DNA of 64,000 nucleotides from an uncultured Candidatus Saccharibacteria bacterium (lineage in GTDB: Bacteria > Patescibacteriota > Minisyncoccia > Portnoybacterales > UBA2143). The notes under the pieces were generated by a model. It was given only the letters and a program-made list of their open reading frames with translations, was not told the DNA's origin and searched no databases. Location: positions 1,750-65,749 of the forward strand of contig CAZQUN010000001.1 in the NCBI GenBank assembly GCA_964596615.1. Direction: 5' to 3'. The first letter of the stretch is position 1. Every line of letters starts with the position of its first letter. The translations under genes were made by a program, and so were the position numbers. Below, piece after piece: positions 7,221-64,000 of this stretch.

Positions 7221-7221
7221 A

Positions 7222-8457: not shown

Positions 8458-8458
8458 A

Positions 8459-31179: not shown

Positions 31180-31180
31180 A

Positions 31181-44612: not shown

Positions 44613-44661
44613 CCTTGATTTATCAAGTCAAGGTGATAGAATGAAAGAACTTGTATATAAT
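44613..44661 (+). promoter_or_regulatory. Divergent promoter region upstream of the glycan island: palindrome plus candidate -35/-10 elements
   Basis: Palindrome CCTTGATTTATCAAGTCAAGG (44613-44633). TTGATT-16-TAGAAT at 44615-44642. TTGTATATAAT (44652-44661) is an extended-minus-10-like element 11 nt before ATG 44673. Confidence 0.4.
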
Positions 44662-47552: not shown

Positions 47553-48278
47553 ATGAAGAATAAATTTACCATTGAACAAGTTCGAGAATTTTGGAATGAG
47601 ACCGCCCCTATTTACGAAGATTGCAACAAAAAAGTAGAAGATACCCATCATCAAAGATTTAAGGAAGCAGTCAAACACTTGAAATTAGAGTCCGGACAAA
47701 AAGTTTTAAATATCTGGGCAAGAACCGGCTTAGCTATTCCTTATCTCCGCCGAGAATGCCCTGAGATTGAAATATTTAACCTAGAGGTTTCGCCTGAGTT
47801 TATTAAAATCGCTCAAAAGAAATTCCCTAATGAAAAATTCCAGCAAACCGATTTAGACTATCTGCCTTTCGAAGACAACTATTTTGACCAAATCCTTTCT
47901 CTTGAAACCCTTGAGCACACTCCTAATCCTTCCCTTTTTCTAAAAGAACTTTTCCGAACTTTAAAGCCAGGGAAAACATTGGTAATGAGTTGTCCGCCAG
48001 CCATAACCGATATTCCTTTTAAAATCTATGGAATTATTTTCAACGACCATGGCGAGGGACCTCATAAATTCCCTTCCTCTCGAAGAGTAAAAAAACTTTT
48101 GAAAGAAACTGGTTTCAGGCTCATTCTTCACAAAGGAACCCTTCTAATTAATCTTGGTCCTCAGTGGCTAAAGGATTTTGGGGAAAGAATTATAAACAAA
48201 TTCCAAAAAACACCAATTAGTGAATTAGGCTTTAGACAATTCTATGTTGCCAAAAAAGAAAATAATTCTAACATTTGA
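47553..48278 (+). CDS. Class I SAM-dependent methyltransferase-like protein with a degenerate motif I
   Basis: Methyltransf_11-like core (DLDYLPFEDNYFDQILSLETLEH...LKPGKTLVM). Motif I reads VLNIWARTG instead of a GxGxG loop. Start set at MKNKF (47553). Confidence 0.65.
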   Translation: MKNKFTIEQVREFWNETAPIYEDCNKKVEDTHHQRFKEAVKHLKLESGQKVLNIWARTGLAIPYLRRECPEIEIFNLEVSPEFIKIAQKKFPNEKFQQTDLDYLPFEDNYFDQILSLETLEHTPNPSLFLKELFRTLKPGKTLVMSCPPAITDIPFKIYGIIFNDHGEGPHKFPSSRRVKKLLKETGFRLILHKGTLLINLGPQWLKDFGERIINKFQKTPISELGFRQFYVAKKENNSNI

Positions 48279-49014
48279 TTTAGAATTTTGGTATAACAGC
48301 AAATTCTTAAAAAAATATTTATCTCAAAATGAAGACCCACCCAACGACTATGTCAGAGAATCTGTTGAGCCAATTCTTAATCTTTTGAAACAACACAATC
48401 AAAAAGTGACTTTTTTTGTTTTGGGACAAATTGCAGAAAGACACCCGGAATTAATTAAAAAGATATTTCAATCAGGACATGAGATTGCTTCTCATGGATA
48501 TTCTCATACAATTCTATCCCAATTAGGAAAAGATGGCTTTGAAAGAGAAATTGAAAAAACCAATCAGATAATCGAACAAATCATTGGCCAAAAACCGACT
48601 GGATTCCGGGCACCCAATTTTTCTCTTAACAATAAAACTAAATGGGCTTTTGATATCCTAAAAAAGCATGGCTTTAAATACGACTCAAGCATTCATCCTT
48701 TTTCGTTTAAAAAGAATTTCCAATATTCCCTAAAAGAACTACCTCCTTCTTTGGGAGGAATATATTTCCGGGCTTTCCCCTTTTGGTTTTATCTTATTCT
48801 AGTCAGAATATTCTCTAAAACCGATTCCCCAGTTATCTACTTACATCCCCATGAATTATTCGATTCAGCCCCAAGAATAGAATCAGCCCCTCGGTTTCTA
48901 AAAAAAATCAAATACTGGGGAACCAAAAGCGCTTTAGATAAATTTGAGAAACTATTAAAAAAATTCAAGTGTATTTCAATAAAGGAACACCTTAATGAAA
49001 GTACTCCTAATTAG
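48244..49014 (+). CDS. Polysaccharide deacetylase (NodB-homology, CE4)
   Basis: TFDLEFW, HEIASHGYSH and FRAPNF motifs. Confidence 0.8.
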   Translation: MLPKKKIILTFDLEFWYNSKFLKKYLSQNEDPPNDYVRESVEPILNLLKQHNQKVTFFVLGQIAERHPELIKKIFQSGHEIASHGYSHTILSQLGKDGFEREIEKTNQIIEQIIGQKPTGFRAPNFSLNNKTKWAFDILKKHGFKYDSSIHPFSFKKNFQYSLKELPPSLGGIYFRAFPFWFYLILVRIFSKTDSPVIYLHPHELFDSAPRIESAPRFLKKIKYWGTKSALDKFEKLLKKFKCISIKEHLNESTPN

Positions 49015-50407
49015 TCCGCCTAATCTTAATACAATTTCCAGTTGCATGCCTAAGGTTCTTGAAGAAGACCTTGATTTTTTGCCGCCTCTTGGGTTAATGT
49101 ATTTGGCTGGATATTTAACCGAAAAGACATCTCATCAAGCAAGTATTCTTGATTGCCAGGTAGAACAATTAAACTACCAGGATTTAAAGGAAAGAATATC
49201 TCAGGAAAATCCAGATGTTATTGGTATCACCGCCATGACTTTTACCCTAATTGACGTGATTAAAACCGCTCAATTAGCCAAAGAAACTAATCCGGAAATC
49301 AAGATTGTTTTAGGTGGTCCCCATGTTAATATTTATCCCAAAGAAACTTTGGCAATCAATGGAATTGATTTCCTCGTTCTTGGAGAAGGAGAAGAGCCAC
49401 TTGAAAAACTACTAGATAATATTAATCAAATCGAAGAACTTCGCCAAACAAAAGGGATTGTCTTTAAAGATGGGGACGAAATCATTAATACTGGCCATCA
49501 AGAGTTAATCAGAGATTTGGATTCTATCCCTTTCCCCAAAAGAGACCTTCTTCCTTATCAGAAGTATTTTTCAATTGTTTCTTCAAAAGCGCCAGTAACA
49601 ACAATGTTTACCAGCCGGGGCTGTCCTTTTCAGTGTCTTTTCTGCGACCGGCCCCATCTGGGAAAAATCTTCCGGGCCCGTTCAGCTAAAAATGTTGTCG
49701 ATGAAATGAAGGAATGCCAAGATATGGGCATTAAAGAAATTATCATCTACGACGATACTTTTGGAGTTAACCGGCAAAGAGTTCTAGATATTTGTTCTGA
49801 AATAAGGGAAAGGAGATTAACCATTGCTTGGGATGTCAGAACCAGAGTTGATACTGTTGACGAAGAAGTTTTAAAGGCGATGAAAAGTGCCAATTGCCAG
49901 AGAATTCACTACGGGGTAGAAGCTGGAACAGAAAAAATCCTTAAAATCCTTAAAAAAGGCATCAACTTGAAACAAATTAAAAATGCCTTTAAAATGACTA
50001 AGAAGATTGGCATTGAAACGATTGGGTATTTCATGATTGGCTCTCCTCGAGAAACAAAAGAAGATATTTTGGAAACAATTAAATTAACTAAAAAATTGAA
50101 TCCTGATTTTATTCATGTCTCTATAACGACTCCTTTCCCCGCGACCGGCCTCTACTTTCTCGGTCTAGAAAATAAAATTCTTCCCTACGATTACTGGAAA
50201 GAATTTGCTCAAAACCCTAAATCTGATTTTACTCCTCTTCCCTGGGAAGAAAATCTAAAAAAAGAAGAATTATTCCACCTTTTAAAACGGACTTACCGGT
50301 CCTTTTATTTCCGACCGAGATATATTATTAAAAGATTATCAAAACTTACCTCTTGGCAAGAGTTAAAAAATAAAATTAAAGCTGCCCTAAAATTATTAAG
50401 GGTTTAA
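48995..50407 (+). CDS. Cobalamin-binding radical SAM enzyme (class B) paralog 1
   Basis: N-terminal B12-binding Rossmann domain (KVLLISPP...VIGITAM...KIVLGGPHV), then a radical-SAM domain with CPFQCLFC (CxxxCxxC); 470 aa. Confidence 0.85.
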   Translation: MKVLLISPPNLNTISSCMPKVLEEDLDFLPPLGLMYLAGYLTEKTSHQASILDCQVEQLNYQDLKERISQENPDVIGITAMTFTLIDVIKTAQLAKETNPEIKIVLGGPHVNIYPKETLAINGIDFLVLGEGEEPLEKLLDNINQIEELRQTKGIVFKDGDEIINTGHQELIRDLDSIPFPKRDLLPYQKYFSIVSSKAPVTTMFTSRGCPFQCLFCDRPHLGKIFRARSAKNVVDEMKECQDMGIKEIIIYDDTFGVNRQRVLDICSEIRERRLTIAWDVRTRVDTVDEEVLKAMKSANCQRIHYGVEAGTEKILKILKKGINLKQIKNAFKMTKKIGIETIGYFMIGSPRETKEDILETIKLTKKLNPDFIHVSITTPFPATGLYFLGLENKILPYDYWKEFAQNPKSDFTPLPWEENLKKEELFHLLKRTYRSFYFRPRYIIKRLSKLTSWQELKNKIKAALKLLRV

Positions 50408-50413
50408 CTATCT

Positions 50414-51082
50414 ATGAACAAAACTACTAAAATACATCAAAAAGAGTATTGGGAAAGAAAAGAATTGGCCAAAAGAAGATCTCCCAAGCATCCTGTTATA
50501 GCAGCTTATATTCTCCCAAAAATCAATGTGATCAGGCGCCATATTAATATAAACAAGCAAACCCGTCTTTTAGATGTTGGCTGTGGCAATGGCTTCTTCA
50601 CCTTTTATTTTGATAAAATCTGCGATGCTCACGGCGTAGATTATTCTGAAAAAATGCTGCAAATGAATCCTGTCAAAAAAAAATCCCTGATGGATGCCAA
50701 CAATCTGGAGTTTGAAGATAATTCCTTTGATGTGGTTTTTTGTCATTTCCTTCTGCACCATACCGATAATCCTGATAAAATAATTCAAGAAATGCGAAGG
50801 GTCTCTAAAAAATATGTTGTTATTCTTGAGCCAAATAGAAACAATCCTCCAGAATTTCTGTTTTCACTTATTGTCAAAGAGGAAAGAGGAGCCCTAAAAT
50901 TCTCGTTGGCCTATTTGAAAAAAATAGTCGCTAGAAATAAACTGCGAATCATAAGTTCGTTTTCGTATGGCATGATAGTTCCTAATAAAACTCCGACTTG
51001 GTTAATACCATTAACCAAGCTTTTCAACTTCAAACAACCATTCGGCATAACAAGCTTTGTTATAGCTGAAAAAAACAAATAG
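50414..51082 (+). CDS. Class I SAM-dependent methyltransferase
   Basis: Canonical motif I LLDVGCGNGFF and the post-I acidic loop; EFEDNSFDVVFCHFLLHH. Confidence 0.8.
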   Translation: MNKTTKIHQKEYWERKELAKRRSPKHPVIAAYILPKINVIRRHININKQTRLLDVGCGNGFFTFYFDKICDAHGVDYSEKMLQMNPVKKKSLMDANNLEFEDNSFDVVFCHFLLHHTDNPDKIIQEMRRVSKKYVVILEPNRNNPPEFLFSLIVKEERGALKFSLAYLKKIVARNKLRIISSFSYGMIVPNKTPTWLIPLTKLFNFKQPFGITSFVIAEKNK

Positions 51083-51084
51083 AA

Positions 51085-52533
51085 ATGAAAGTCCTATTAA
51101 TCAACCCACCATACATCAACTTTGAAGGAATGAAGGATTCTGGCGGGCATGCTATTCCTTTTAACCTGGCTTATCTAGCCGGCTATTTAAGAGATAAGAT
51201 TGACTGCCAAATTAAAATCCTCGATACAGAAGTCATGGCCCTGGACTATGACGGCATAAGAAAAGCAATTAAAAAAGAGGGGCAACAGGATGTTATTGGC
51301 TTTACCTGCCCTTCTCCGACTGTTAAACACGTCTTCAAGATATCAGAAATGATTAAAGAAGACCTAGGTTTTAATCCGGTTATTGTGGTCGGCGGAACTC
51401 ACCCGACTATCCTACCCAAAGAAATGCTTAAAAATCCCCATATTGATATTGCAGCTATCGGTGAAGGTGAGATTACTTTTTACGAAATAGTCAATGCCGT
51501 CAAAGAAAAGCGAGATGATTTTGAAAATATTAATGGGATTTACTACAAAAAGGGTGGTCAAATATTAAAGACCCCACCTCGAGATCTTATCCCTGACCTA
51601 GATGATATTCCTTTTCCAGCTCGCGATCTCTTTAATCTTAAGATGCATTACTCAGCTCCGACTAAAGTTGTTAGCTCCGAATTATCTTCGCCAATATTCA
51701 CTTCTCGAGGATGCGCCTTTGACTGCATCCATTGCGTTTCAAAAAGTGTCTGGAAGAGAAAAGTCAGGTATCGAAGCGCCAGAAATATTATCGCTGAAAT
51801 TGAAGAATGTATTAACAAACACAACATTAAAGAATTTAATATTCTTGATGAAAACTTTACCCTAAATAAGTCCAGATGCCTCGAAGTTTGCCAAGAGATC
51901 ATCAATAAAAAGCTACCAATTTACTGGGTTTGTTTTTCCAGAGCTGACACTATTGACGATGAAGTTGCTTCTATTATGGCTAAGGCCGGCTGCAGAAAGA
52001 TATCTTTCGGGCTTGAATCAGGTTCACAGAAAATATTGGATTTAATGAGAAAACAAAACACTGTTGAGCAAGGACGAAAGGCTATTGCCACAGCCAGAAA
52101 ATACGGCATCCAGCCTCACGCCAGTTTTATGTTCGGCAACATCGGCGAAACCAAAGAAACCATTAGGGAAACGATTGATTATGCTAAAAGCTTAGATCTT
52201 GATATTTCAACGTTTTTTATCACTTGTCCTGTCCCCGGTTCCGATCTCTACTATTACGCCAAGGACAATGGCTTTATCCCCGAAGGCACCCCTTGGGAAA
52301 TGTTTGCTCCTTTGACTGATAGAGAACCAATCCCGGTCCAAAGAAATCTTAGCCAGGAAGAACTAGTTTATTGGCAAAAAAAAGCTTTTCGAGAATTTTA
52401 TCTTCGCCCAAAATATGTTATCCAGCGACTAAAACAGCTTAAATCCAAAAACGCTCTTAAGATTACTTTGGCTGGCTTTAAGGTTTTGCTAAGAATCTTT
52501 TTTAAGCCAAAACCAAAAAATGATCAAAGATAA
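51085..52533 (+). CDS. Cobalamin-binding radical SAM enzyme (class B) paralog 2
   Basis: B12-binding domain (KVLLINPP...VIGFTC...VIVVGGTHPT), then CAFDCIHC; 482 aa. Confidence 0.85.
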   Translation: MKVLLINPPYINFEGMKDSGGHAIPFNLAYLAGYLRDKIDCQIKILDTEVMALDYDGIRKAIKKEGQQDVIGFTCPSPTVKHVFKISEMIKEDLGFNPVIVVGGTHPTILPKEMLKNPHIDIAAIGEGEITFYEIVNAVKEKRDDFENINGIYYKKGGQILKTPPRDLIPDLDDIPFPARDLFNLKMHYSAPTKVVSSELSSPIFTSRGCAFDCIHCVSKSVWKRKVRYRSARNIIAEIEECINKHNIKEFNILDENFTLNKSRCLEVCQEIINKKLPIYWVCFSRADTIDDEVASIMAKAGCRKISFGLESGSQKILDLMRKQNTVEQGRKAIATARKYGIQPHASFMFGNIGETKETIRETIDYAKSLDLDISTFFITCPVPGSDLYYYAKDNGFIPEGTPWEMFAPLTDREPIPVQRNLSQEELVYWQKKAFREFYLRPKYVIQRLKQLKSKNALKITLAGFKVLLRIFFKPKPKNDQR

Positions 52534-53530
52534 ATTAATTTCATCAATATTTAAAAGGTCTAATTTTGGCAAGCTTTCTGACCTAATTGAAAAGAGCTTC
52601 TTTTTAAAAATCCCGTACAAGCTGATTAGCCAAAAAATGATCTCGTATGATTTTCCTGTTCATCTTTTTATCGAAACAACCAACGCCTGTAATCTCAAAT
52701 GCCAGTTTTGTGCCCGAACCGATAAAAAGTTCGAAATTGGCAGCATGGATTTTAATCTGTTCAAAAAGATAATTAACGAGGCCAAAGAATATGGACCAAG
52801 AACCTTTTCTCTTCATCTTTTCGGAGAACCGCTTTTAACCAAGAATATCTTTGAAATGATTGAATATATTAAGAAAGCTAATCAGAGCAATACTGTTTTT
52901 CTGACAACTAACGGAACCTTGCTTAACAAAGAAAACGCCAAGTCAATAATCAAAACTTCTGTTGACCGCCTTTCAATTAGCTTTCCCAGTGTTAAAAAAG
53001 AAAGCTATCAAAGAATTGCCGGTTTTGACCAATTAGAAAAAGTGGAAGAAAATATTAATGGTCTGATTGAATTAAAAAAAGAAAAAAAAGTCAATCACCC
53101 CCTTATTTATCTCCGAATGGTTTTAAACAAGGATAACTTTGACGAAAAGAAAATTTTTGAAAAGAAATGGAAGAATAAGCCTGTTATTTCAGAAATCAGA
53201 GACGCTCATAATTTCGGTGGTTATTCTAAAGAATTCTCCCTTAGGAAAGGGCAAACTAAAAAAATCAAAAGATATCCCTGTTATCATCTTTGGTTTTCAC
53301 CGGCTATTCATTTCAACGGTGACTTTTCCATCTGTTGTGATGACTGGGGCAAAAAAACTGTTTTAGGAAACGTCAAAAACCAAACCATTAATCAAATTTG
53401 GAATTCAAAAAAAATTAACCAATACCGCCAGGCTCACATGAGAGGCAAATATGATAAGGTCCCTCTTTGTCAAGGATGCGATGTTTGGACAATGTATCAA
53501 GACATTTTCTTTGACTGGCAAAAAAAATGA
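52520..53530 (+). CDS. Radical SAM protein with a C-terminal SPASM/twitch-type auxiliary cluster domain
   Basis: CNLKCQFC near the N-terminus; C-terminal Cys-rich region (CYHLW...ICCDDWG...CQGCDVW); 336 aa. Confidence 0.8.
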   Translation: MIKDKLISSIFKRSNFGKLSDLIEKSFFLKIPYKLISQKMISYDFPVHLFIETTNACNLKCQFCARTDKKFEIGSMDFNLFKKIINEAKEYGPRTFSLHLFGEPLLTKNIFEMIEYIKKANQSNTVFLTTNGTLLNKENAKSIIKTSVDRLSISFPSVKKESYQRIAGFDQLEKVEENINGLIELKKEKKVNHPLIYLRMVLNKDNFDEKKIFEKKWKNKPVISEIRDAHNFGGYSKEFSLRKGQTKKIKRYPCYHLWFSPAIHFNGDFSICCDDWGKKTVLGNVKNQTINQIWNSKKINQYRQAHMRGKYDKVPLCQGCDVWTMYQDIFFDWQKK

Positions 53531-54192
53531 AACTATTAACCCAAGAAGATTTAAAACCATTAGTTCAGGCCGACCCAAATCAGATGATATATTCCATCGA
53601 TAGCTATTTCAAGCCAATCAGAAAAATTCTTTTTCGGAAAAGATTAAAAATGGTTTTAAAATTAATGGGAAACAAAGAATATCAGAACTTCTTGGATATT
53701 GGCCTTGGTAGCGGCATATTTCTTCCGGAATTATCCAGTCGAACCAAAAAACTAACTGCCACTGATACTCACAAAAACATTGAAGTCGTTAAAAATATTA
53801 TTAACTCAAAAAATATTTCGGCCAATCTGTTGAAAGCCGATGTTCGTCAAATGCCTTTTGAAGATAATAGTTTTGATGGTATTCTCTGTTTAAGTGTCTT
53901 AGAATTTGTTTCAGATATTAATCAGGCCATTAAGGAAATTAAAAGGGTTGCCAGGCCAAAAGCCAAAATTATCATTGGCATCCCAGTTTTTAACCCAATC
54001 ACCGACCTTTGTTACAAAATGATTGGATACAAGAAATATGCCGACTCTTTTCATAAATCAAATCACCAGATAATTATCAAAGCGATTAAAGAAAACCTCT
54101 CGATTAAAAAAATCAAAACTTATCCCTTTTTTTTGCCAGTTAATTTATCTCTCTTTGTTGCCCTGGAAGCAACTAAAGTTGATTTTAATTAG
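53527..54192 (+). CDS. Class I SAM-dependent methyltransferase
   Basis: Motif I FLDIGLGSG; PFEDNSFDGILCLSVLEF. Confidence 0.75.
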   Translation: MKLLTQEDLKPLVQADPNQMIYSIDSYFKPIRKILFRKRLKMVLKLMGNKEYQNFLDIGLGSGIFLPELSSRTKKLTATDTHKNIEVVKNIINSKNISANLLKADVRQMPFEDNSFDGILCLSVLEFVSDINQAIKEIKRVARPKAKIIIGIPVFNPITDLCYKMIGYKKYADSFHKSNHQIIIKAIKENLSIKKIKTYPFFLPVNLSLFVALEATKVDFN

Positions 54193-54213
54193 AAATCATT
54201 GTATAAATAAATT

Positions 54214-55083
54214 ATGGAAAAAAAGTTTTCAATCATTATCCCCCTATACAACGAGGGAGAATCTATCGAGCAAGTAATTGCTGATATCAGGAAACACTTG
54301 CCAGAAAATAGCTACGATTATGAAATTGTGGTTGTTAATGATGGTTCAACTGATAATAGCCAGGAGGTATTGAATAAAATAGATAACATTAAAATTATTA
54401 AATCCCCGGAAAACAAAGGTTATGGCGCATCAATTAAAAAAGGTATTAGTCAATCCGAAAGAGAATATATTGCCATCATAGATGCTGATGGAACCTATCC
54501 AGTCAAGGCCATGCCAGAATTAATCAAATACGCTAAGGATTATGATATGGTTTCTGGCCTTAGACGAGGTAAAAACCTAGACCAACGCTGGCTCTATTCC
54601 CAAAGAATAGGAAAGATGATCTTAAAGAAATTGGCTGGCTATGTAACTAAGACCGAAATCCCGGATATAAACTGCGGCTTAAGAATTTTTAGAAAAGATA
54701 TTGCTCAGCAGTTCTGGGGTCTTTATCCGGATGGATTCTCTTTTACGACAACTTCGCTAGTTGCTTTTATTTCCAACGGCTATCAGATTAAATTCATCCC
54801 GATTGAGTACCACAAGCGAATTGGCAAATCTACTCTTAAGCCGATGCGGAGCTTTACCGCCTTTGTTAATTTAATCTTAAAAATCAGTCTATTCTTTAAG
54901 CCAATCCGAGTTTTTCTACCAGCCAGTTTAATAATTCTTTTCTTTGCTGTTGGAATTACCGTCTATGGTATTTATTCTAAAGATGTTTTTTATGACACAA
55001 CCTTAATTCTTCTCTCGGCCATAGCTCTTCAAACATTTTTCTTTGGTCTTTTGGCAGAAATAATTGTTCATAATCGAAAATAA
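54214..55083 (+). CDS. GT2 glycosyltransferase, polyprenyl-phosphate sugar synthase type (paralog of 46031-46891)
   Basis: FSIIIPLYNEGESI, VVNDGSTD, DADGTY, C-terminal TM helices. Collinear with the first GT2. Confidence 0.8.
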   Translation: MEKKFSIIIPLYNEGESIEQVIADIRKHLPENSYDYEIVVVNDGSTDNSQEVLNKIDNIKIIKSPENKGYGASIKKGISQSEREYIAIIDADGTYPVKAMPELIKYAKDYDMVSGLRRGKNLDQRWLYSQRIGKMILKKLAGYVTKTEIPDINCGLRIFRKDIAQQFWGLYPDGFSFTTTSLVAFISNGYQIKFIPIEYHKRIGKSTLKPMRSFTAFVNLILKISLFFKPIRVFLPASLIILFFAVGITVYGIYSKDVFYDTTLILLSAIALQTFFFGLLAEIIVHNRK

Positions 55084-56501: not shown

Positions 56502-57451
56502 AAATCCTAAAAGAATTTTCTCGGCACTGGTATATCATTATCGGCATTCTAATCTTTCTCTATATTGTTTTCTACAAGATAAATTTAAGGGAAGTTTTTA
56601 GCATACTCGCTCAGGCCAATCCATATTCCATCCTCTTGGCTGCCTTTTTTACGATTTTAATGATTACCCTTCAGCCAATTAGGTGGAATTACTTAAAAAG
56701 AATTCAGGATATTAAGTATTCTCATAAGGATTCTTTTTTAATTTATAACGCTGGATTTTTCTTTTCATCAATTACTCCTGGAAGAGTTGGTGACTTTATT
56801 AAAGTTTTTTATTTGAAAAAAGATGGTCATTCAATCGGAAAGTCAATGGTTAGTATTACGATCGATAGAGTGGCTGATGTTCTTTTTCTTTTTCTCCTCG
56901 GATATTTTAGTCTCCTTTTCTTCTTTCCCTCTTTTCGAAAAGAAATTATTCTTCTAACCTTTCTTTCTCTAATTATCTTGGGAATCTTTGTCTTTTTCAG
57001 AAAAAACGGGCTTTTAAAAATCCTTTTTAACAGGGTTTCCAAGATAATAATTCCATCTAAATATCAAAAATCCTGGCATTTGAATTACCAGGATTTCATT
57101 AATGGCCTAAAGGAGTATCGATTCAAAAATTATTTTATCCTTCTTCTTTTCACCATTCTTAACTGGTTTTTCTATTATACCTCGATGTATTTTCTGGCTA
57201 AAAGCATTAATTTGGACAATATTCCTCTTTTTTACTTCGTCGGCTCGGTTGCCTTAGCTGCTTTAGCAGTCCTGATTCCAATTTCAATTTTTGGACTAGG
57301 AACCAGAGATGCAACTCTTCTGTTTTTCTTTTCTGCTGTTGGCATCAGTCCGGAGAAAACAATTGGCTTTTCAACTCTCTTTCTTTTGATTCTCCTGATG
57401 GCAACCCTAATTGGTTTTCTGGCCTGGTTGAAAAAACCATTAAAGTTTTAA
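56498..57451 (+). CDS. Polytopic membrane protein, flippase-like (UPF0104 / lysyl-PG-synthase TM-region family)
   Basis: 317 aa, ~8 TM helices, PGRVGDF motif. This family is usually found next to GT2 genes. Confidence 0.5.
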   Translation: MKILKEFSRHWYIIIGILIFLYIVFYKINLREVFSILAQANPYSILLAAFFTILMITLQPIRWNYLKRIQDIKYSHKDSFLIYNAGFFFSSITPGRVGDFIKVFYLKKDGHSIGKSMVSITIDRVADVLFLFLLGYFSLLFFFPSFRKEIILLTFLSLIILGIFVFFRKNGLLKILFNRVSKIIIPSKYQKSWHLNYQDFINGLKEYRFKNYFILLLFTILNWFFYYTSMYFLAKSINLDNIPLFYFVGSVALAALAVLIPISIFGLGTRDATLLFFFSAVGISPEKTIGFSTLFLLILLMATLIGFLAWLKKPLKF

Positions 57452-58504
57452 GAAATTCTTTATCAAAATCGGCCAATTAGAAGGATTGTTGACTAAACTG
57501 CTTTGAATTGCGTTCTCAAAAGTACAAGCGCATTTCTTATCCTTAATATATTTTAAAGTTTTCCTAGCCCTTTCGGTTGAAAGGACTTTTTTAATATCAT
57601 AATTAAAATCTTTTAAATTGCCGAAATCAGCATCGAGAATTTCACAAGGCCTGACCAGGCCATCTTCTGAAATGACGACCATTTCCTTTCCAGCCGAACA
57701 AACGTGTTTTCTTTTTCCTGTTCTAAGAAATCCTTCAATAATTTCCCTGGTTGCCATCTTATTCGCCGCCATAAGCCGGGAAAAAGCAAAGCCAGAACTA
57801 AAATTTTCTTTTTCCTTATTAACCATATCAGCAATCTGATGATAATCTTTATCAGAAAGATTACTAGTCCCGACCTCTCTAACACTTCCTCTTGCCCAGG
57901 AAAAATTAAAATCAGCCAAAGGCATTTCATTTCTGACAAAATTCATTACTTCCTTAACTTTGGTGTAGTTTTTGGTTGAAACCGTCATGTTAATCAGTAT
58001 TTCAAAGTCCTTAACGTTCTTTTTTAATTCAACCAGATTTCTGTAATTAACAACTACTTTTTCAAAACAGCCTTCCACTCTTCTGATCTTATTATGATCT
58101 TTGCCCAGGCCATCAAGAGAGAGACAAAGCTTTAAATATGGGTGCTTGGTTGTTTTAAGGATTTCTTCAACCATATCCTTTACCTTATCGACTAAAATAG
58201 AGTTAGTTGGAATGCTGATAAATTGAACTTTATTATTTCTGTCAAAAATTCGGGCGATTTCGGGCAAATCATTTCTTAAGGTCGGCTCGCCGCCAGTTAA
58301 AGTAACATATTCCAATTGGCCGAAAGATTTGGAAATCCTTTCAATTTCATCCAAAGATAATTCCTTATTAATAGCGGCCTGATCAATTTCTTTCCAATAA
58401 AAGCACATTGCGCAACGAGCATTGCACCGGGCAGTGGTAAAGAAAATGATGTAGGTTGGTGTTTTAGAGAATAAGTTTCTAAAACCCTTTAAGTATTTAT
58501 TCAT
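57440..58504 (-). CDS. Radical SAM protein with a C-terminal SPASM/twitch-type domain (second copy, opposite strand)
   Basis: CNARCAMC near the N-terminus; C-terminal CSAGKEMVVISEDGLVRPC...CACTFENA Cys cluster; 354 aa. Its 3' end overlaps the convergent gene by 12 nt. Confidence 0.8.
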   Translation of the reverse strand: MNKYLKGFRNLFSKTPTYIIFFTTARCNARCAMCFYWKEIDQAAINKELSLDEIERISKSFGQLEYVTLTGGEPTLRNDLPEIARIFDRNNKVQFISIPTNSILVDKVKDMVEEILKTTKHPYLKLCLSLDGLGKDHNKIRRVEGCFEKVVVNYRNLVELKKNVKDFEILINMTVSTKNYTKVKEVMNFVRNEMPLADFNFSWARGSVREVGTSNLSDKDYHQIADMVNKEKENFSSGFAFSRLMAANKMATREIIEGFLRTGKRKHVCSAGKEMVVISEDGLVRPCEILDADFGNLKDFNYDIKKVLSTERARKTLKYIKDKKCACTFENAIQSSLVNNPSNWPILIKNFLKL

Positions 58505-59468
58505 CTTTTTTGAAAGGATAGAAGATTAATGAAAATCCTGCTCCCAAGGCAGTCAAAAAGCAAAAATATAAATCGAGAATAAAGAAAGGGAAAATTAAGT
58601 GAATTCTTCTTTCCTTAATTAGAAACCAATAAAATCCGTAGTTATACAAAAGATAAACAAGAAAAAATGAAAGAAGAAGATAGAAAAAAGAAGGAAGAAA
58701 AACCAAAACAAGGATTAAAGGAAAAATCATTGCCCCGATTAAAGTTTTAATCCCTCTTTCTTTGGTTGAATAAACCGGATCAAATTTCTTTCTTTTGATA
58801 AAAAGACGGATCCATTGCCAGCTTCTTTTTAGTGTTTTCTTTGTCAATTGTCTGAAGGTCTCAAAATGATGACCGACCAAAATATTCCTGGCGATATATA
58901 TTTTAATATTTTCCTTGGCCAAACGATAGCCAAATTCAAAATCCTCAACATCAGCCCCTTTGTATTTTTGATCAAAATATCCGAATCTATCAAAGATATT
59001 TCTTTTAACGGCTGAACGCTCGGTAGTAAAAGATGTCTGGTATTCTCCTGGCTGACTCCAAAGATAATATTTGTAATAGGCGATATACAATGGAGTTAAT
59101 CCTTTGTTCAGAGGAGTCTTATCTTTGACCATAATAATTCCATCGATTTCCGGTTTTTCCAAGAAAATTTCATTTAATTCCGAAAGGGCATTATTCTCTT
59201 TAAAAGTGACATCCGAGTCAACAAAGACAACGATTTCTCCTTGGGCTTTTTTAATGCCGACGTTTCTGGCTCCGGCTGGACCCAAATTCTTTTCCAAAAC
59301 AATCTGTTTAGCATTGTATTGATTAATAATTTCTTCGGTTTTATCAGTTGAAGCATCGTTGATTAGAATAACCTCAAAATCAGAAAAGTTCTGCCTCTTC
59401 ACAGAATCTAAACACTTTCCTATTGTTTTTTCAGCATTGTAAGCCGGGATAACAATTGAGAATTTCAT
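58497..59468 (-). CDS. GT2 glycosyltransferase with a C-terminal TM anchor
   Basis: FSIVIPAYNAEKTI, ILINDASTD, FVDSDV (DxD) and a C-terminal hydrophobic domain. Confidence 0.75.
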   Translation of the reverse strand: MKFSIVIPAYNAEKTIGKCLDSVKRQNFSDFEVILINDASTDKTEEIINQYNAKQIVLEKNLGPAGARNVGIKKAQGEIVVFVDSDVTFKENNALSELNEIFLEKPEIDGIIMVKDKTPLNKGLTPLYIAYYKYYLWSQPGEYQTSFTTERSAVKRNIFDRFGYFDQKYKGADVEDFEFGYRLAKENIKIYIARNILVGHHFETFRQLTKKTLKRSWQWIRLFIKRKKFDPVYSTKERGIKTLIGAMIFPLILVLVFLPSFFYLLLSFFLVYLLYNYGFYWFLIKERRIHLIFPFFILDLYFCFLTALGAGFSLIFYPFKKDE

Positions 59469-59469
59469 A

Positions 59470-61188
59470 TTACCTGATTAGATTTAAAAACCAGCTTTTA
59501 GTTTGAGAGGTTTCCGGCAAGGAGACCTCAATATTATCGGAAGCAATATTTTCAACCCGAGAATTATTTAAAATCTCTTTGGTTAATTCAGGAGAGTAGC
59601 CAAGAACATATTTAACATTGAACTTATCAAAAGCAGGCTGAAGATTTTTCTGCTCAATTAGCTTTTCTATTGTTTTGGGCGCGAAAATGACAATTGATTT
59701 TTCAGTCTGGTAAGCTATTTTCTCCCACTGAGTCCCTGGTATACCAGGGCTGCTTAAGGCAATAATTTCTTCATCTTTAATCTTAAATTTCTTTATTTCC
59801 CTAACATGGGTATCAGCAGCCAAATATTCTTCGTTGTCATAGATTCTCCCCCACAAGACATGATTACTTAGAACCAGATTGTACAAAACCAACAGAATCA
59901 ACAGGGCTCCCATTATTCTCTTTCCATTATCTCCCATTCGAAAATACTGGGATAGAATATTGATCAAGAATAATAAGCCGAGAGCAATGACCAAAGCAAT
60001 CCCCCAACTAAAATCCATCAAATGATTGCGGGTTCCCATGTAGACATAGGAAGCAAAAAACAGAAAGAAGACGATCCAAAAAACAAAAAACCAATATAAA
60101 TAACTGTGTTCTCTTTTCAAAAATAAAAATCCAAAGATAAAAAGCAGAAAAATAAATGGTCCGCCAATATCCTCAATGGCAAAGAAACGAAAACTATGCC
60201 TTAAGAAATTAACTGTTCCAACCTTTAATCTTCCCACCAACCCCGGACTTTTAAAAGCCTGGGTGGCAGATACTTTGATTGCTTCTATCTCTTCGAACAT
60301 TCCCAAGTCAGGAGAAACGACACTTAGCCTTAGATCGTTTAGAAAGTTCTCTCGGTCAAAATGATAGGTATAAGGGTCTGGGAAAATATGATGATAGAGA
60401 AAAAAATCGAAAAAATCAGTTCTTTCTTCAATATCGGCCTTAAGAGGTTGCGCATAATAATCTTTGCCAGAAAATATCTCTGGCAGCCAGAAAAGAGAAA
60501 CAATGATAATAAATGGAATAAAAGTATAAATTAGGCACTTTTTTTCTTTTCTGAACAACAGATAAAGAAAAAAGGCAGGGGCAGCTGTGAACATTGCCTC
60601 CTTGGCTATGCCAGTTAGAGCTAAAAAAATACCTGATAGAAAGATTAAAAAATATCTGTATTTAAATTCTGATTTCAGTCCGATAAAGAATAATAGTGAG
60701 AATAAAGAAAAGAAAAGAAGGCAAATTTCATAAGTTCCGAAATTATAAACAATATAATACCAATTAAAAGGCAAAAGAACATAGACAAGAGAAAAAAGAG
60801 CGGCTATTTTAAAATCAAAAAGATAATAAACTACAATAGTGAAAATAATTAAAGTCAAAACCAGAATAGCTATTGAAACAAAAATCAAATTATTGTATTC
60901 GGGTAAACCAGTAATCCTAAAAATCTGAGCCAGGACAACAGAAGTCAGCTTATTACCAACAATAGAATTCTGCGCCTGTTCTTTGACTAAAGAGGGCGCC
61001 AGAATAATATTAAGACTATTTTCTGTTCCATAGATGCCTTCTTGAAAGTAATTCCGAGCCAATAATAAAGAACCGCGCGAAACCGTAGCTGAATAACCCT
61101 TGAACATTGTTGGGGCATACCAGACCGAAACAGCAAAAACAGCAACCCCAGCCAAAAGAATAATGAATTTTAATTTTTCTTTAGACAT
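59470..61188 (-). CDS. Large polytopic membrane protein, GT-C-fold glycosyltransferase-like (ArnT/PMT/oligosaccharyltransferase-like); tentative
   Basis: 572 aa, at least 11 predicted TM helices and a C-terminal soluble domain. Sits beside polyprenyl-P-sugar synthases. No diagnostic motif confirmed. Confidence 0.4.
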   Translation of the reverse strand: MSKEKLKFIILLAGVAVFAVSVWYAPTMFKGYSATVSRGSLLLARNYFQEGIYGTENSLNIILAPSLVKEQAQNSIVGNKLTSVVLAQIFRITGLPEYNNLIFVSIAILVLTLIIFTIVVYYLFDFKIAALFSLVYVLLPFNWYYIVYNFGTYEICLLFFSLFSLLFFIGLKSEFKYRYFLIFLSGIFLALTGIAKEAMFTAAPAFFLYLLFRKEKKCLIYTFIPFIIIVSLFWLPEIFSGKDYYAQPLKADIEERTDFFDFFLYHHIFPDPYTYHFDRENFLNDLRLSVVSPDLGMFEEIEAIKVSATQAFKSPGLVGRLKVGTVNFLRHSFRFFAIEDIGGPFIFLLFIFGFLFLKREHSYLYWFFVFWIVFFLFFASYVYMGTRNHLMDFSWGIALVIALGLLFLINILSQYFRMGDNGKRIMGALLILLVLYNLVLSNHVLWGRIYDNEEYLAADTHVREIKKFKIKDEEIIALSSPGIPGTQWEKIAYQTEKSIVIFAPKTIEKLIEQKNLQPAFDKFNVKYVLGYSPELTKEILNNSRVENIASDNIEVSLPETSQTKSWFLNLIR

Positions 61189-62614
61189 TTTTTTTCTTTT
61201 TTCTTAAACTAACCTGATTACTAAAGAGCCAATAACTGAAAGCATCTTTAATTGAAGGTCGATAAAACCAAAAGGTCTGCCAGGCAAAAAACGAAGAATG
61301 AACAGTTTCAAAAAATATATTTCTTTTAAGCTTTATCAGCCGTCTAACAATTGGTTCTAGAAAATATATCTTTGAAAGGAGAGGAATAAAGAAAAGTAAA
61401 TTTTCCAATTCCTCTTTATTCTCTAGGTTAAAAGGAGAATAATATTGGCTATTTAAATCCATCTGATTTGGATCATAATCTTCATCCAGATATCCCTTTT
61501 CCTTAGCGTAATCTAAAAGATGAGTTCCTGGAAAGGGCTGGGCAAATCCAATCGCAACAAGATCTGCCTTAATCTTACTATTAATCTGAGCAGTCTTAAA
61601 TCCATCATCAATTGACTCTCCCGGCAAGCACATCATATTAAAGGTTTTTAATTTCAATCCCTTGCTTTTAATAATCTTGGAGGCTCTGATAATATCATCA
61701 TCCGAAACATTTTTTTTCAAAATCTCATTTCGCAAACGCTCGTTGCCGGTTTCAATACCCATAGTTACCCCCCTGCAACCAGCGCTTTTTAAAAGATCAA
61801 CAGTGCTCTCATCAATTAAATCAGCTCTTACCTGGGCAATAAACTCTAGATTAATTTTCTCTTTGTACTTCCGAGAGAATTCTTTTAGCCAATCTTTCTT
61901 CAGAATAAAGGTATCATCTGAGAAATATATTCTCTTCAGACCATAATTATCTCTAACCATTGATATTTCCTCTATCAAACTATCAACGCTTCGTAATCTG
62001 GTGTATTTGCCTTTTCCAGCATAAAGATTCTTGTAAGCCTGGTTAACACAGAAAATGCAATCAAAAGGGCATCCCCGGCCGGCAATAAAATTCTTAACAA
62101 TGCTTTTTCTAAGATAATCATACTTTTTGTAATAGAGATCCCTATCAGGCAAAGGCAAGGCATTCAAATCTTCAATTAATGGCCTTAATGGATTTTTAAT
62201 AATTCTATCTCCTTCTTTTATCCAAATGTTTTCTATTCTTTTAATATCTTCTTTTCTTTCCATTTTTTCCACTAATTCCAAGAGAGCCTCTTCTCCTTCA
62301 CCGATACAAATCATATCAATTCCGTCCTGATTTAAAACATTAGGAGAAAAAGTCGGATGAGGGCCACCCATAATAATTGGGATATCAAATCTTTTTTTAA
62401 TTATTCTGGCCTTTTCCAAGGCCCAGTTATGAATTGTTGTTGTACAGGAAAATCCTATCAAATCGGGCTTAATCTGCCCTATTTCTTCAATCAAATCTTG
62501 ATTGTTTGAAGGAACAATAAGGGAGGCCTCGAAGCCAGCCTTTTTCAAAACACTTGAAAGATGCATTAGCCCAAAAGAGACAAACCCCGAATAACTGACA
62601 AAGAGAATTTTCAT
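61181..62614 (-). CDS. Cobalamin-binding radical SAM enzyme (class B) paralog 4
   Basis: B12-binding domain (KILFVSYSG...LIGFSC...IIMGGPHPT), then CPFDCIFC. Start set at MKILFV (62614). Confidence 0.8.
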   Translation of the reverse strand: MKILFVSYSGFVSFGLMHLSSVLKKAGFEASLIVPSNNQDLIEEIGQIKPDLIGFSCTTTIHNWALEKARIIKKRFDIPIIMGGPHPTFSPNVLNQDGIDMICIGEGEEALLELVEKMERKEDIKRIENIWIKEGDRIIKNPLRPLIEDLNALPLPDRDLYYKKYDYLRKSIVKNFIAGRGCPFDCIFCVNQAYKNLYAGKGKYTRLRSVDSLIEEISMVRDNYGLKRIYFSDDTFILKKDWLKEFSRKYKEKINLEFIAQVRADLIDESTVDLLKSAGCRGVTMGIETGNERLRNEILKKNVSDDDIIRASKIIKSKGLKLKTFNMMCLPGESIDDGFKTAQINSKIKADLVAIGFAQPFPGTHLLDYAKEKGYLDEDYDPNQMDLNSQYYSPFNLENKEELENLLFFIPLLSKIYFLEPIVRRLIKLKRNIFFETVHSSFFAWQTFWFYRPSIKDAFSYWLFSNQVSLRKKKKNV

Positions 62615-64000
62615 TTGAGTATGTTGCATAGGACTAAAAGACCTCTCAGATAGCGCCTCCATTCCATTGGTCTAGAAATTTTTCTAATTATATACCCAGG
62701 CCTTAAATAGAACCGACGGTATGCCCTTGAGACAACCCTTTTTAATTCATCCTTGTTCTTGTATCCCTTGGGTAAAAATGGATGACCTGAAATATCAAAG
62801 GATTTATCATCAATTGATGATACCTCTCCCCATTTTTTTCCTTCTTTATCAAGAGCGGTAAAAGGAAAGGCAATCGTTGAATGGAACTGGACAAAATCAG
62901 GCTCCAACTTAATTAAATCATCAACAGTTTTCTCCGCTATTTCCGGGGTCTCGCCCGGCAAGCCCAGCATCATAGACATCCGGGTCTCTATTCCAGCTGC
63001 CTTGGTCAATTTAACCGCCTGGTAATTAAACTTCAATTCCATCTTCTTATTAATATTATCCAATAACTCCTGGGAAAAACTTTCGACTCCGTAAAGAATT
63101 GAAACACAACCTGCTTTTTTCATTAATTCAAGTATTTCTTTATCAACTAAATCAGTTCTAGTCTGACAAGACCAAATTATCCCTAGATTTTCTTTAATTA
63201 ACAACTGACACAAATTCTTAACCCAATTCCTATTAACCGTAAAATTCAAAGAACCAAAATTAATCTGTTTTGCCCCGTAATCCTTTTTAACCAGCTTTAT
63301 CTCTTCAATAATCTTTTCGGGAGAACGAACCCGATAATTTCTTCCACCAACAATATTTAAAAGACAAAAAGTGCAGTCATATGGACAACCCCGCGAAGTT
63401 AAAACATCAAGACAAGGTTCTTTAACTACAGTATGGGGTAATTTCCGGTAATATTCCATCTTAAGCAACTCTCTGCTGGCCATAGGCAAATCATCAAGAT
63501 TTATCGGTGGCCGGACTTCATTCTCAATAATTTCTTTTCCTTTTCTAAAAATCAGCCCCTTTATTAATTCTTTCTCTCTTCCATCAACAAGTTCTTTAAT
63601 TGTTTCTTCCGGATCGCCATAGGCGCTGGCATCTATCCTTGGATTATTCCTCATGACTGACCTGATTAATTCTTTGCTGTAACTTCCAAAAAGAACGACT
63701 TGGCTGTTTTTAAGAGTGTTAGCAATGCTAATCGCGCCTTCCAAGCCCCAGCGACATCTATCAAAAGGGGCAAAGAGAACAAAATCCGGAGAAAAATTAT
63801 CAACATCTTTCAGAATGCTTTCCAAATGCCTATCTTCAACCAGACAATCAAGGATTTTTACCTGGTGGCCGCTATTAATCAAAACCGGAGCAAGAGTAAC
63901 AGCCTCCAATGGAAAAAGAGTCGTTCTAAAATTCCTTTTGAAGGAATTCTTTTCTTTGGGCTCCTTTCTTTTTTCTGGAGCAATATTGGGCGGGGAAATG
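62611..64000 (-). CDS. Cobalamin-binding radical SAM enzyme (class B) paralog 5; the 5' end runs beyond the window
   Basis: CPYDCTFC radical-SAM motif and a B12-domain-like N-region. The reading frame stays open upstream to position 64000, and the aligned N-terminus of the paralogs is missing, so the true start is outside the window. Confidence 0.75.
   Translation of the reverse strand, partial: ISPPNIAPEKRKEPKEKNSFKRNFRTTLFPLEAVTLAPVLINSGHQVKILDCLVEDRHLESILKDVDNFSPDFVLFAPFDRCRWGLEGAISIANTLKNSQVVLFGSYSKELIRSVMRNNPRIDASAYGDPEETIKELVDGREKELIKGLIFRKGKEIIENEVRPPINLDDLPMASRELLKMEYYRKLPHTVVKEPCLDVLTSRGCPYDCTFCLLNIVGGRNYRVRSPEKIIEEIKLVKKDYGAKQINFGSLNFTVNRNWVKNLCQLLIKENLGIIWSCQTRTDLVDKEILELMKKAGCVSILYGVESFSQELLDNINKKMELKFNYQAVKLTKAAGIETRMSMMLGLPGETPEIAEKTVDDLIKLEPDFVQFHSTIAFPFTALDKEGKKWGEVSSIDDKSFDISGHPFLPKGYKNKDELKRVVSRAYRRFYLRPGYIIRKISRPMEWRRYLRGLLVLCNILK

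Follow-up and report, generated by a model that had tools for sequence, protein, structure and literature searches.

A 64,000-nucleotide window of contig CAZQUN010000001.1 (assembly GCA_964596615.1, positions 1,750 to 65,749), which is the whole stretch of DNA analyzed here, contains five paralogous radical S-adenosylmethionine (SAM) genes of the B12-domain type, named B1 to B5 below. They lie in a gene island of at least 28 kb that runs from position 44673 to about 8.6 kb past the window end. The reading that we favor, with a probability of about 0.6, is that the paralogs are cytoplasmic enzymes with a tailoring role, encoded in a surface-glycan island of a candidate phyla radiation (CPR) bacterium, and that they would act in a lipid-linked glycosylation route of the three-component type. 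This reading is built on gene content, domain and fold assignments, motif conservation, gene neighborhood, and the ancient divergence of the paralogs.

The open reading frame (ORF) listing and translations place the five genes where an earlier reading made from the sequence alone (the sequence-only reading) had put them, with B1 at 48995-50407 (+ strand, 470 aa), B2 at 51085-52533 (+, 482 aa), B3 at 55083-56501 (+, 472 aa), B4 at 61181-62614 (-, 477 aa, with alternative upstream starts as far as 62662), and B5 from 62611 to the window end at 64000 (-). The motifs CPFQCLFC, CAFDCIHC, CPFNCLFC, CPFDCIFC, and CPYDCTFC quoted in that reading were all found, one in each of the ORFs B1 to B5. Pfam Radical_SAM (PF04055) matches all five at 84 to 102 bits (95, 91, 102, 84, and 101 bits for B1 to B5, respectively), and the radical SAM barrel is visible in the AlphaFold2 (AF2) model of B1, which has a predicted local distance difference test score (pLDDT) of 92.4. 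The B12-binding profile PF02310, with a gathering cutoff of 32.1 bits, matches B1 (98.4 bits), B2 (65.2 bits), B3 (77.6 bits), and B4 (70.6 bits). All five are genuine paralogs within class B, the B12-domain type of radical SAM enzymes. The claim that all of them share the B12-binding domain holds only at the fold level; full-length B5, whose Rossmann domain is divergent, scores only 21.8 bits with PF02310 and is without the GG and GE motifs described below.

The 5' end of B5 lies 14 nt past position 64000, and an intact 467-aa protein is encoded on a 30-kb Logan contig (L096) that is identical to window positions 51181-64000 over 12,820 nt, with 0 mismatches. A 432-aa ORF with a TTG start was listed first for B5; its interpretation as a truncated gene or pseudogene was rejected because the frame is open to the window edge and the gene is intact on L096. 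No frameshift was found in B1 to B5, the lengths of which agree with those of their orthologs. The count of five turned out to be an underestimate, since two radical SAM/SPASM genes (S1 and S2) are interspersed among the paralogs and a sixth B12-type gene, B6 (480 aa; PF02310, 54.9 bits), lies about 8 kb past the window end. L096 extends the island by at least 8.6 kb (L096 positions 497-8595, equivalent to virtual window positions 64020-72118), and over about 28 kb the totals come to eight genes of the radical SAM type, four for methyltransferases, and two for GT-C-fold transferases.

The contexts of B1 orthologs were compared among contigs from metagenome-assembled genomes (MAGs) labelled Patescibacteria, Nanoarchaeota, and "Deltaproteobacteria DG_8" and among 80 metagenomic loci; the well-flanked set consists of the 16 metagenomic loci in which B1 has at least 5 kb of sequence on either side. 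In this set, B1 is accompanied by a homolog of the family 2 glycosyltransferases (GT2s) GT2a and GT2b in all 16 loci, by a flippase-like gene in 13, by a polyprenyl-phosphate glycosyl-1-phosphate transferase (PGT) in 12, by a GT-C-fold transferase in 12, and by a methyltransferase in 11. The recurrent gene order is PGT, GT2, an optional pair of nitroreductase and methyltransferase MT0, an optional deacetylase, B1, an optional B2 or methyltransferase, the flippase-like gene, and an optional pair of S1 and methyltransferase MT2, followed by a convergent GT-C gene. The flippase-like gene usually follows B1 directly, and the deacetylase is directly upstream of B1 in many loci. The nitroreductase and the MT0 ortholog are always paired in related clusters (L005, L007, L020, L036, L047, L048, L052, L056, L063, L073, and L086), and the S1-MT2 pair also recurs (L004, L005, L009, L017, L020, L036, L043, L047, L056, and L073).

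B12-type radical SAM genes number from one (eight loci) to four per locus in the well-flanked set and six in two other contigs, and the minimal unit is the triad of GT2, B1, and a methyltransferase. Because GT2 occurs with B1 in 16 of 16 loci while the copy number varies from one to six, B1 is the only conserved core gene among the paralogs and the constant partner of GT2, with the other paralogs as shuffled, accessory modules. None of its neighbors is as conserved as B1, which occurs on both sides of the bacterial-archaeal divide. On a related 373-kb contig, genes for a ferredoxin, NifS, NifU, and an FNR-like FAD/NAD reductase lie among the radical SAM genes (L005:14848-17403), a set that would fit dedicated Fe-S assembly and electron supply for the latter.

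That the paralogs belong to a cell-surface pathway, as the sequence-only reading proposed, is borne out at the level of gene context by the flanking PGT, GT2s, flippase-like protein, and GT-C transferase. The island is tightly packed, with gene gaps of -35 to +21 nt, and consists of two convergent operons meeting at 57440-57451. The PGT (44673-46031, +) is the first gene of the plus-strand operon, and it matches Pfam Bac_transf (204 bits) and meets the cutoff of NCBIfam TIGR03025 EPS_sugtrans (355 versus 295.6 bits). The best sigma-70-like site of the island, a consensus match only, is located just upstream of it (44633-44661). GT2a (46031-46891, +; Pfam Glycos_transf_2) and GT2b (54214-55083, +), which are 39% identical, are putative polyprenyl-phosphate sugar synthases, and each has two C-terminal transmembrane segments, which is the architecture of such synthases. 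GT2a is GtrB/DPMS/ArnC/AglJ-like, and its closest solved relatives are GtrB sll0501, the dolichyl-phosphate (Dol-P)-Man synthase, and ArnC; GT2b likewise matches GtrB, the Dol-P-Man synthase, and ArnC best among solved structures. The best NCBIfam matches, all below cutoff, are AglJ, PgfS, Dol-P hexose transferase, and PpgS for GT2a and AglJ, Dol-P hexose transferase, ArnC, and PpgS for GT2b.

The flippase-like membrane protein (LPG_synthase_TM/TIGR00374; 56498-57451, +) has a Pfam match of 158 bits and meets the cutoff of the TIGR00374 "flippase-like domain" model (88.8 versus 43.2 bits); no GtrA or SMR flippase is present in the island, which has the LPG_synthase_TM protein instead. A 572-aa membrane protein encoded at 59470-61188 (-) has no Pfam or NCBIfam match, and its AF2 model (pLDDT, 89.3; pTM, 0.90) was compared with PDB structures using Foldseek. 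The top 33 matches are all GT-C enzymes, with STT3, AglB, and PglB at template modeling (TM) scores of about 0.5, followed by ALG9/12, PMT, AftA, PimE, and Emb, and a few homologs of the protein carry PF13231 (PMT_2). The model thus describes a GT-C-fold membrane glycosyltransferase, the putative final transferase, with a putative lipid-linked donor. A second GT-C paralog of 567 aa, 54% identical to the 572-aa protein, is encoded beyond the window on L096, together with a Wzx-type flippase and a GT9 glycosyltransferase. An ordinary family 2 glycosyltransferase, GT2c (58497-59468, -), matches Glycos_transf_2 with 116 bits, and its best NCBIfam matches (EpsD, TuaG-like) are below cutoff.

The tailoring candidates other than the B12-type genes comprise a deacetylase, the SPASM enzymes, and the methyltransferases. 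The polysaccharide deacetylase family protein (48244-49014, +; Pfam Polysacc_deac_1, 103 bits, plus DUF3473) occupies a position analogous to those of ArnD and HpnK, and its best NCBIfam match is the XrtA-system polysaccharide deacetylase (187 bits, below the cutoff of 276). S1 (52520-53530, +; Pfam Radical_SAM and SPASM) is BtrN-like, with BtrN, an aminocyclitol dehydrogenase, as its closest solved relative (E = 1.7e-16). S2 (57440-58504, -) matches Radical_SAM with 65 bits and SPASM with 20.9 bits, just under the cutoff of 21.5, and its PDB matches to MoaA, GDGT-MAS, and cytosylglucuronate decarboxylase are weak. Three class I SAM methyltransferases are encoded in the window, namely MT0 (47553-48278, +; Pfam Methyltransf_11/23/25), MT1 (50414-51082, +; Methyltransf_11, 75 bits), and MT2 (53527-54192, +; Methyltransf_11, 72 bits), and a fourth on L096; orthologs in related loci are 52% to 77% identical to MT0 and 49% to 85% identical to MT1. 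Three of the paralogs were said to sit directly beside methyltransferases, but only MT1 directly abuts radical SAM genes, MT0 and MT2 each being one gene away. No transmembrane segments were found in the radical SAM enzymes, the methyltransferases, or the deacetylase, and all of these are presumably cytoplasmic.

From these assignments we infer the substrate, step order, chemistry, and cobalamin requirement of a putative pathway. GT2a and GT2b would load a sugar, probably an N-acetylhexosamine (HexNAc), on polyprenyl phosphate at the inner membrane face, and the deacetylase would free the amine to give polyprenyl-phosphate hexosamine (HexN). B1 to B6, the SPASM radical SAM enzymes, and the four class I methyltransferases would then rework the lipid-bound sugar. 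The likely chemistry would be C-methylation of unactivated carbons (as for GenK and MoeK5), ring contraction (as for HpnJ), or dehydration or deoxygenation (as for AprD4), and N- or O-methylation could also occur. The LPG_synthase_TM flippase-like protein would carry the product across the membrane, and the GT-C-fold transferases would attach the sugar to an acceptor for which the PGT, GT2c, GT9, and Wzx genes would be responsible. As interchangeable accessory modules, B2 to B6 could generate product diversity between strains. Among solved structures, the closest homologs of B1 and S1, AprD4 and BtrN, respectively, are sugar-acting.

Iterative or combinatorial modification was suggested in the sequence-only reading, with the paralogs possibly acting in sequence on one substrate. 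The combinatorial part is supported by gene context. The passing along of one substrate is not, because two polyprenyl-phosphate GT2s and at least two GT-C transferases point to parallel branches rather than a single substrate. A related explanation, that the paralogs are recent tandem duplicates acting iteratively on a single substrate, draws on the clustering and co-orientation of the genes in operons and on the existence of iterative class B methylases such as TokK and CysS (PMC9204698); the divergence of the paralogs, together with the parallel branches just described and the many related clusters that have B1 alone, makes it highly improbable.

Pairwise identities among B1 to B5 are only 28% to 38%, with B3 and B1 being 38% identical and B4 showing 28% to 31% identity with the other paralogs, whereas their orthologs elsewhere are far closer. 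B1 has an ortholog with 82% identity in a MAG contig labelled Saccharibacteria and orthologs with 62% to 77% identity in hundreds of others. More than 4,400 B1 homologs were scored, the best 120 of which (query excluded) are 62% to 82% identical, nearly all about 470 aa long, and derived from MAGs labelled CPR, DPANN, and Deltaproteobacteria. The orthologs of B2 are 55% to 69% identical and those of B5 66% to 71%, followed for B5 by sequences with 40% to 49% identity, mostly from DPANN MAGs. The B3 orthogroup is small, with one cluster representative at 62% and the remainder at ≤44%, and the B4 orthologs are loose (39%). In a neighbor-joining tree of 88 B12-type radical SAM proteins from related clusters, the window paralogs fell into separate clades, with B2 in a clade of its own, B3 on a long branch beside the B1 clade, and B4 in a loose clade with its relatives. 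Because the orthologs elsewhere (62% to 82%; 39% for B4) are closer than the paralogs are to one another, the paralogs are not recent duplicates. Alignment and tree accordingly settle the choice between recent tandem duplication and ancient divergence, which the sequence-only reading had posed, against the former, and sequence comparison places the five paralogs in anciently diverged lineages, each with its own orthologs. The superfamily is large, as B3 alone matches 13,084 representatives of 50%-identity clusters at E ≤ 1e-30. Some distant B3 relatives (P0298, P0312, P0322, and P0340) are giant proteins of 1,879 to 2,633 aa with two to five matched radical SAM stretches, i.e., fused multi-radical-SAM enzymes.

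Tailoring of lipid-linked monosaccharides has precedents in HpnI/K/J (PMC13459092, PMC9204698) and in the epimerases of three-component systems (PMC11127046). The hopanoid route starts with a GT2 that adds GlcNAc to the lipid, after which a deacetylase exposes the amine and HpnJ is believed to contract the ring (PMC13459092, PMC9204698), the chemistry of HpnJ being inferred from a knockout only (PMC13459092). Like the hopanoid module HpnI/HpnK/HpnJ/HpnL, the island combines a GT2, a deacetylase, a B12-domain radical SAM enzyme, and an LPG_synthase_TM-like protein in one locus, and the two would share the logic of placing a HexNAc onto a lipid, deacetylating it, and then performing radical chemistry on the lipid-bound amino sugar. 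Of the curated models, HpnJ scores best for B1, B3, B4, and B5; its alignment is full length, and its size is likewise about 470 aa. However, the HpnJ (TIGR03471) scores of B1 to B5 (237.9, 198.3, 246.4, 138.6, and 178.3 bits) amount to only 24% to 43% of the trusted cutoff of 577.6. The island deacetylase belongs to the PF01522 family, whereas HpnK belongs to the YdjC family, and the carrier here is presumably polyprenyl phosphate, with the product exported and transferred by GT-C enzymes.

These likenesses also feed another explanation, namely, modification of membrane lipid head groups or tails in the style of hopanoids, glycerol dialkyl glycerol tetraethers (GDGTs), or ladderanes, which in a CPR bacterium may mean remodelling of scavenged host lipids. 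The first place of HpnJ for four of the five paralogs fits it, as do scores of 106 to 146 bits with the "lipid biosynthesis B12-binding/radical SAM" model, a weak HpnL match for the flippase-like protein, weak GDGT-MAS and Tes matches for S2, and the way in which the set of GT2, deacetylase, B12 radical SAM enzyme, and HpnL-like protein mirrors hpnI/K/J/L (PMC13459092). Yet all of these scores are far under the curated cutoffs, and neither the window nor the related loci contain a squalene-hopene cyclase, an hpnG or hpnH equivalog, or another lipid-synthesis gene; shc, hpnG, and hpnH are absent from the annotated window ORFs, and S2 scores 58.5 bits with HpnH against a cutoff of 225. The conserved partners are instead glycan machinery (PGT, GT-C, Wzx, and GT9), and the archaeal version of the cluster adjoins AglB. 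Lipid modification is therefore distinctly unlikely.

Membership of B1 to B5 in other curated families, i.e., HpnJ, BchE, AprD4, PhpK, and ApyD, was rejected because the scores are all far under the cutoffs. BchE (TIGR02026) gives 117.5 to 228.4 bits against 481.35, and no bacteriochlorophyll genes were found in the window; the AprD4 family (NF033070) gives 71.9 to 139 bits against 500, over the radical SAM core only, and ApyD gives 120 to 187 bits against 750. A cluster for a ribosomally synthesized and posttranslationally modified peptide (RiPP) or another small secreted natural product, such as a C-methylated peptide of the polytheonamide/ApyD type or a phosphonate, would account for matches of 70 to 187 bits to the ApyD, PhpK, and RiPP C-methyltransferase models and for the combination of many radical SAM enzymes with methyltransferases, which is typical of RiPP clusters. 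Besides the low scores, the gene gaps leave no space for a precursor peptide, the island contains no peptidase, ABC exporter, pepM, or leader-recognition element, and the genes that constantly accompany B1 encode a GT2, a flippase-like protein, and a GT-C; such a product is extremely improbable.

Glycan tailoring on a lipid carrier also has close counterparts in the three-component systems (GtrA/B/C, ArnC/D/E-F/T, CsbB/GtcA/YfhO, and the pentofuranose systems with epimerases), which unite a GT2 polyprenyl-phosphate sugar synthase carrying C-terminal transmembrane helices with a flippase and a GT-C transferase, roles for which the island has candidates. In the Arn system, the sugar is tailored on its lipid by the deformylase ArnD. 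It also occurs in three-component systems with the epimerases ORF13 or DprE1/E2 (PMC11127046). The island differs from all of these in that the flippase candidate is an LPG_synthase_TM protein rather than GtrA or SMR, the GT-C has no Pfam or NCBIfam match and falls outside all described families, and tailoring would involve up to eight radical SAM enzymes, for which no description was found in the literature searched.

Whether the paralogs use cobalamin was assessed from their N-terminal domains. In class B radical SAM enzymes, cobalamin is bound base-off and His-off, which leaves no single histidine as a signature. The structures of OxsB, TsrM, and TokK show cobalamin contacts at a downstream Gx(S/T)xL-type motif, a GG motif, and a GE motif (PMC9204698). 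All three contact motifs are kept in B1 (IGITAMT, GGPH, and GEGE), B2 (IGFTCPS, GGTH, and GEGE), B3 (VGFYATT, GGPN, and SEGE), and B4 (IGFSCTT, GGPH, and GEGE), so the signature residues on which the sequence-only reading depended are retained, with B5 as the exception. In 37 of 37 B1 orthologs, G77, T79, G107-G108-P109-H110, and E131-G132-E133 are invariant. B1 aligns without gaps to TokK across "PDVLALSCYVW...VVAGGPHV...LAHGEGE" and to QCMT across "GGP...GEGE," and at the position of TokK Trp76, which lies beneath the cobalt, B1 has Phe83, B2 has Pro, and B3, B4, and B5 have Trp. When the N-terminal 167 residues of B1 alone were compared with PDB sequences, the TokK cobalamin domain (E = 1.4e-4), 4Q37, and CysS were matched, and AprD4 was not.

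GenK, GenD1, Fms7, MoeK5, TokK, and CysS share with B1 to B4 an N-terminal Rossmann domain of the cobalamin type, which carries motifs of the Gx(S/T), GGPH, and GEGE kinds, and a TIM barrel with the CxxxCxxC motif, and the sugar substrate of MoeK5 is lipid-linked. MoeK5 methylates a sugar in moenomycin A biosynthesis (PMC9204698). The window enzymes differ from these class B sugar C-methylases and iterative methylases in their C-terminal domains, identities in structural alignments are only 17% to 23%, and methyl transfer by the window enzymes is putative. On balance, B1 to B4 are reasonably likely, from their motifs and profile matches, to bind cobalamin. With B6 included, the group probably does so, and the organism would then have to import the cofactor. 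The absence of visible cobalamin genes noted in the sequence-only reading holds for the 64-kb window on its 163-kb contig, as no cob, cbi, or btu genes occur among the 49 Pfam-annotated window ORFs (all 18 island genes included), and neither a cobalamin riboswitch nor any other Rfam family was detected in the window at gathering thresholds. Strict dependence on scavenged corrinoid, as claimed in that reading, is a reasonable extrapolation, although it does not apply to B5.

The B5 subfamily departs from this pattern as a whole. In all 34 homologs examined (P0171 to P0204), the conserved motifs FDRCRWG, xSY, and YGDPE replace the Gx(S/T), GG, and GE motifs, and most of the named members come from DPANN-labelled MAGs (Pacearchaeota and Nanoarchaeota). 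Canonical cobalamin binding by B5 is doubtful, and judging from these motifs B5 probably does not bind cobalamin in the canonical manner. The conserved Cys and Asp of the subfamily motifs hint at a different ligand or cofactor.

Several points weigh against the favored reading, the first of which concern AprD4 (PDB 6FD2), a radical SAM 1,2-diol dehydratase of the apramycin pathway. In the PDB, AprD4 ranks first for B1 both by sequence (E = 2.4e-35, over radical SAM core residues 166-392 only) and by the fold of the AF2 model (TM scores, 0.76 to 0.79), ahead of the cobalamin-bound QCMT, TsrM, OxsB, CysS, and TokK (0.6 to 0.76). It shares the two-domain layout of B1, and its substrate is the amino sugar paromamine. 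Like ArsL, AprD4 falls within B12-radical-SAM similarity networks yet does not bind cobalamin (PMC12931638). Because AprD4 and the cobalamin-bound enzymes all match B1 with TM scores of 0.6 to 0.79, structure alone cannot decide whether B1 binds cobalamin, and the cobalamin dependence of the paralogs is plausible, with a closest solved relative that does not bind B12.

The paralogs might accordingly be cobalamin-independent, like AprD4, with the Rossmann domain as a structural relic, 5'-deoxyadenosyl-radical dehydration, deoxygenation, or rearrangement as the chemistry, and no corrinoid scavenging. The AprD4 matches and network placement speak for this, as do the B5 subfamily without GG and GE motifs and below the PF02310 cutoff and the lack of cob/btu genes and a cobalamin riboswitch in the window. 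The AprD4 match, however, is confined to the radical SAM core, with the N-terminal domain contributing 4.5 bits and no detectable sequence similarity between the N-terminal domains beyond a 24-residue stretch. That domain of B1 alone finds cobalamin domains rather than AprD4, PF02310 gives 65 to 98 bits for B1 to B4, and the contact motifs are kept in B1 to B4 and invariant across 37 B1 orthologs. Cobalamin independence of the paralogs is therefore unlikely, though less so than the alternatives considered above.

The remaining points against lipid-linked tailoring with cobalamin concern the reach of the evidence and the other pathway steps. The search for cob and btu genes covered the 64-kb window. 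The AglJ model scores about 100 bits against a cutoff of 325, and all assignments below the superfamily level fall short of curated cutoffs. A nucleotide sugar and a polyprenyl-phosphate sugar cannot be distinguished computationally as the substrate, and we know of no demonstration that LPG_synthase_TM proteins act as flippases for polyprenyl-phosphate sugars. As the modelled 572-aa GT-C matches oligosaccharyltransferases best, it could transfer an oligosaccharide linked to polyprenyl diphosphate and not a single sugar. The cluster also has no characterized enzyme and no known product.

The same toolkit occurs in archaea. On a 154-kb Pacearchaeota contig (GCA_001787285.1; L097), a flippase-like gene, a GT2, a SPASM radical SAM gene, four B12-type radical SAM genes (one of which is a B5 ortholog with 48% identity), and a PMT_2 GT-C lie directly beside AglB/STT3 and an AglH-like GT4, and the toolkit is therefore tied to lipid-linked glycosylation in archaea too. 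A MAG labelled Nanoarchaeota (L004) contains a B1 ortholog 76% identical to window B1. The sharing between CPR and DPANN suggests inter-domain transfer or, for the short L004 contig, mis-binning. The window locus resembles archaeal Agl N-glycosylation loci, with their Dol-P sugar synthases AglJ and AglD and the oligosaccharyltransferase AglB, in that AglJ is the best NCBIfam match of GT2a and GT2b and the GT-C model is closest to AglB, STT3, and PglB. It differs in that the window organism is bacterial (MurA, MurB, and MreB) and the 572-aa GT-C is much smaller than AglB, with a TM score of only about 0.5; no WWDxG-type motif was found on reading its sequence.

Two further island proteins lie outside the scheme above. 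A nitroreductase-family flavoprotein (46895-47551, +; Pfam Nitroreductase, 111 bits), which may serve as an electron donor or use the substrate itself, matches BluB partially, at the N terminus (82 bits, below the cutoff of 150); a role as a 5,6-dimethylbenzimidazole synthase was rejected because this partial, below-cutoff match was judged to be generic fold similarity. A 577-aa multi-transmembrane protein on L096 has no detectable family and shows no profile similarity to the 572-aa GT-C (hhalign probability, 0.4%).

The CPR origin of the window is well supported by sequence comparison, in line with the CPR-type organism assumed in the sequence-only reading. The gene order SecA, HPF, MurB, a 594-aa HExxH protein, PGT, GT2, and B1 is common to the window and a 480-kb contig of GCA_018830295.1 (NCBI label, "Patescibacteria group bacterium"), which carries the B1 homolog P0042, with identities of 60% to 69%. 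The Saccharibacteria-labelled MAG contig with the closest B1 homolog (82%) has the same order from the 594-aa HExxH protein through B1, including the nitroreductase, MT0, and the deacetylase, and these seven genes are 67% to 88% identical. The 594-aa protein (42801-44585, -) has an N-terminal hydrophobic segment and a weak match to MXAN_6640-type HExxH metalloproteases (27 bits, below 140), and in the window as well as in nine or more related loci its gene and that of the PGT form a divergent pair.

Positions 1 to 44.6 kb of the window are housekeeping background, with genes for TGT, Fpg, two MreB proteins, aminoacyl-tRNA synthetases, RseP, RRF, MurA, RpoA, S4, S13, an FtsA-like protein (26153-27424), SecDF, SecA, and MurB, and no tRNA genes were found in the 64 kb using ARAGORN. 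The G+C content is slightly lower in the island (0.360) than in the remaining window (0.385). The two MreB paralogs (6165-7220 and 15356-16363, both -; Pfam, 468 and 444 bits) are full length and less than 10 kb apart. The region 29524-32560 (-) encodes a coupling ATPase of the VirD4/TrwB type, with a treble-clef zinc finger at its C terminus, and contains beside it a 459-aa ORF without a Pfam match; it may belong to a system for type IV secretion or DNA uptake or be what remains of one.

Every part of the island comes from a known superfamily, and it is not a new kind of system. Nevertheless, for glycobiology it represents a version of the three-component pathway that was not found described in the literature searched, where no link of B12-type radical SAM enzymes to CPR/DPANN glycosylation or to three-component systems was found either. 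For radical SAM enzymology, it offers a testable substrate hypothesis (polyprenyl-phosphate HexN) for a large uncharacterized clade next to HpnJ and BchE. To our knowledge, almost nothing is known of the surface glycan chemistry of CPR and DPANN organisms. Both groups live attached to other cells, so that host recognition, phage attack, and immune-like defenses all take place at their surface glycans. Tentatively, the B1 family and its accessory relatives may represent a new functional class of cobalamin-dependent radical SAM enzymes acting on polyprenyl-phosphate-linked amino sugars, which might yield sugars not known from any cultured microbe, with C-methylation, deoxygenation, or a contracted (carbocyclic) ring; the modules might be swapped between CPR and DPANN, diversifying the host-contact surface, and the pathway might be gated by corrinoid from the host or community. 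A reduced genome of the source organism is plausible, and a large share of a very small genome would then be given to radical chemistry on a lipid-carried sugar. For organisms thought unable to make B12, this would pose a concrete cofactor question, that of the supply of cobalamin, Fe-S clusters, and SAM.

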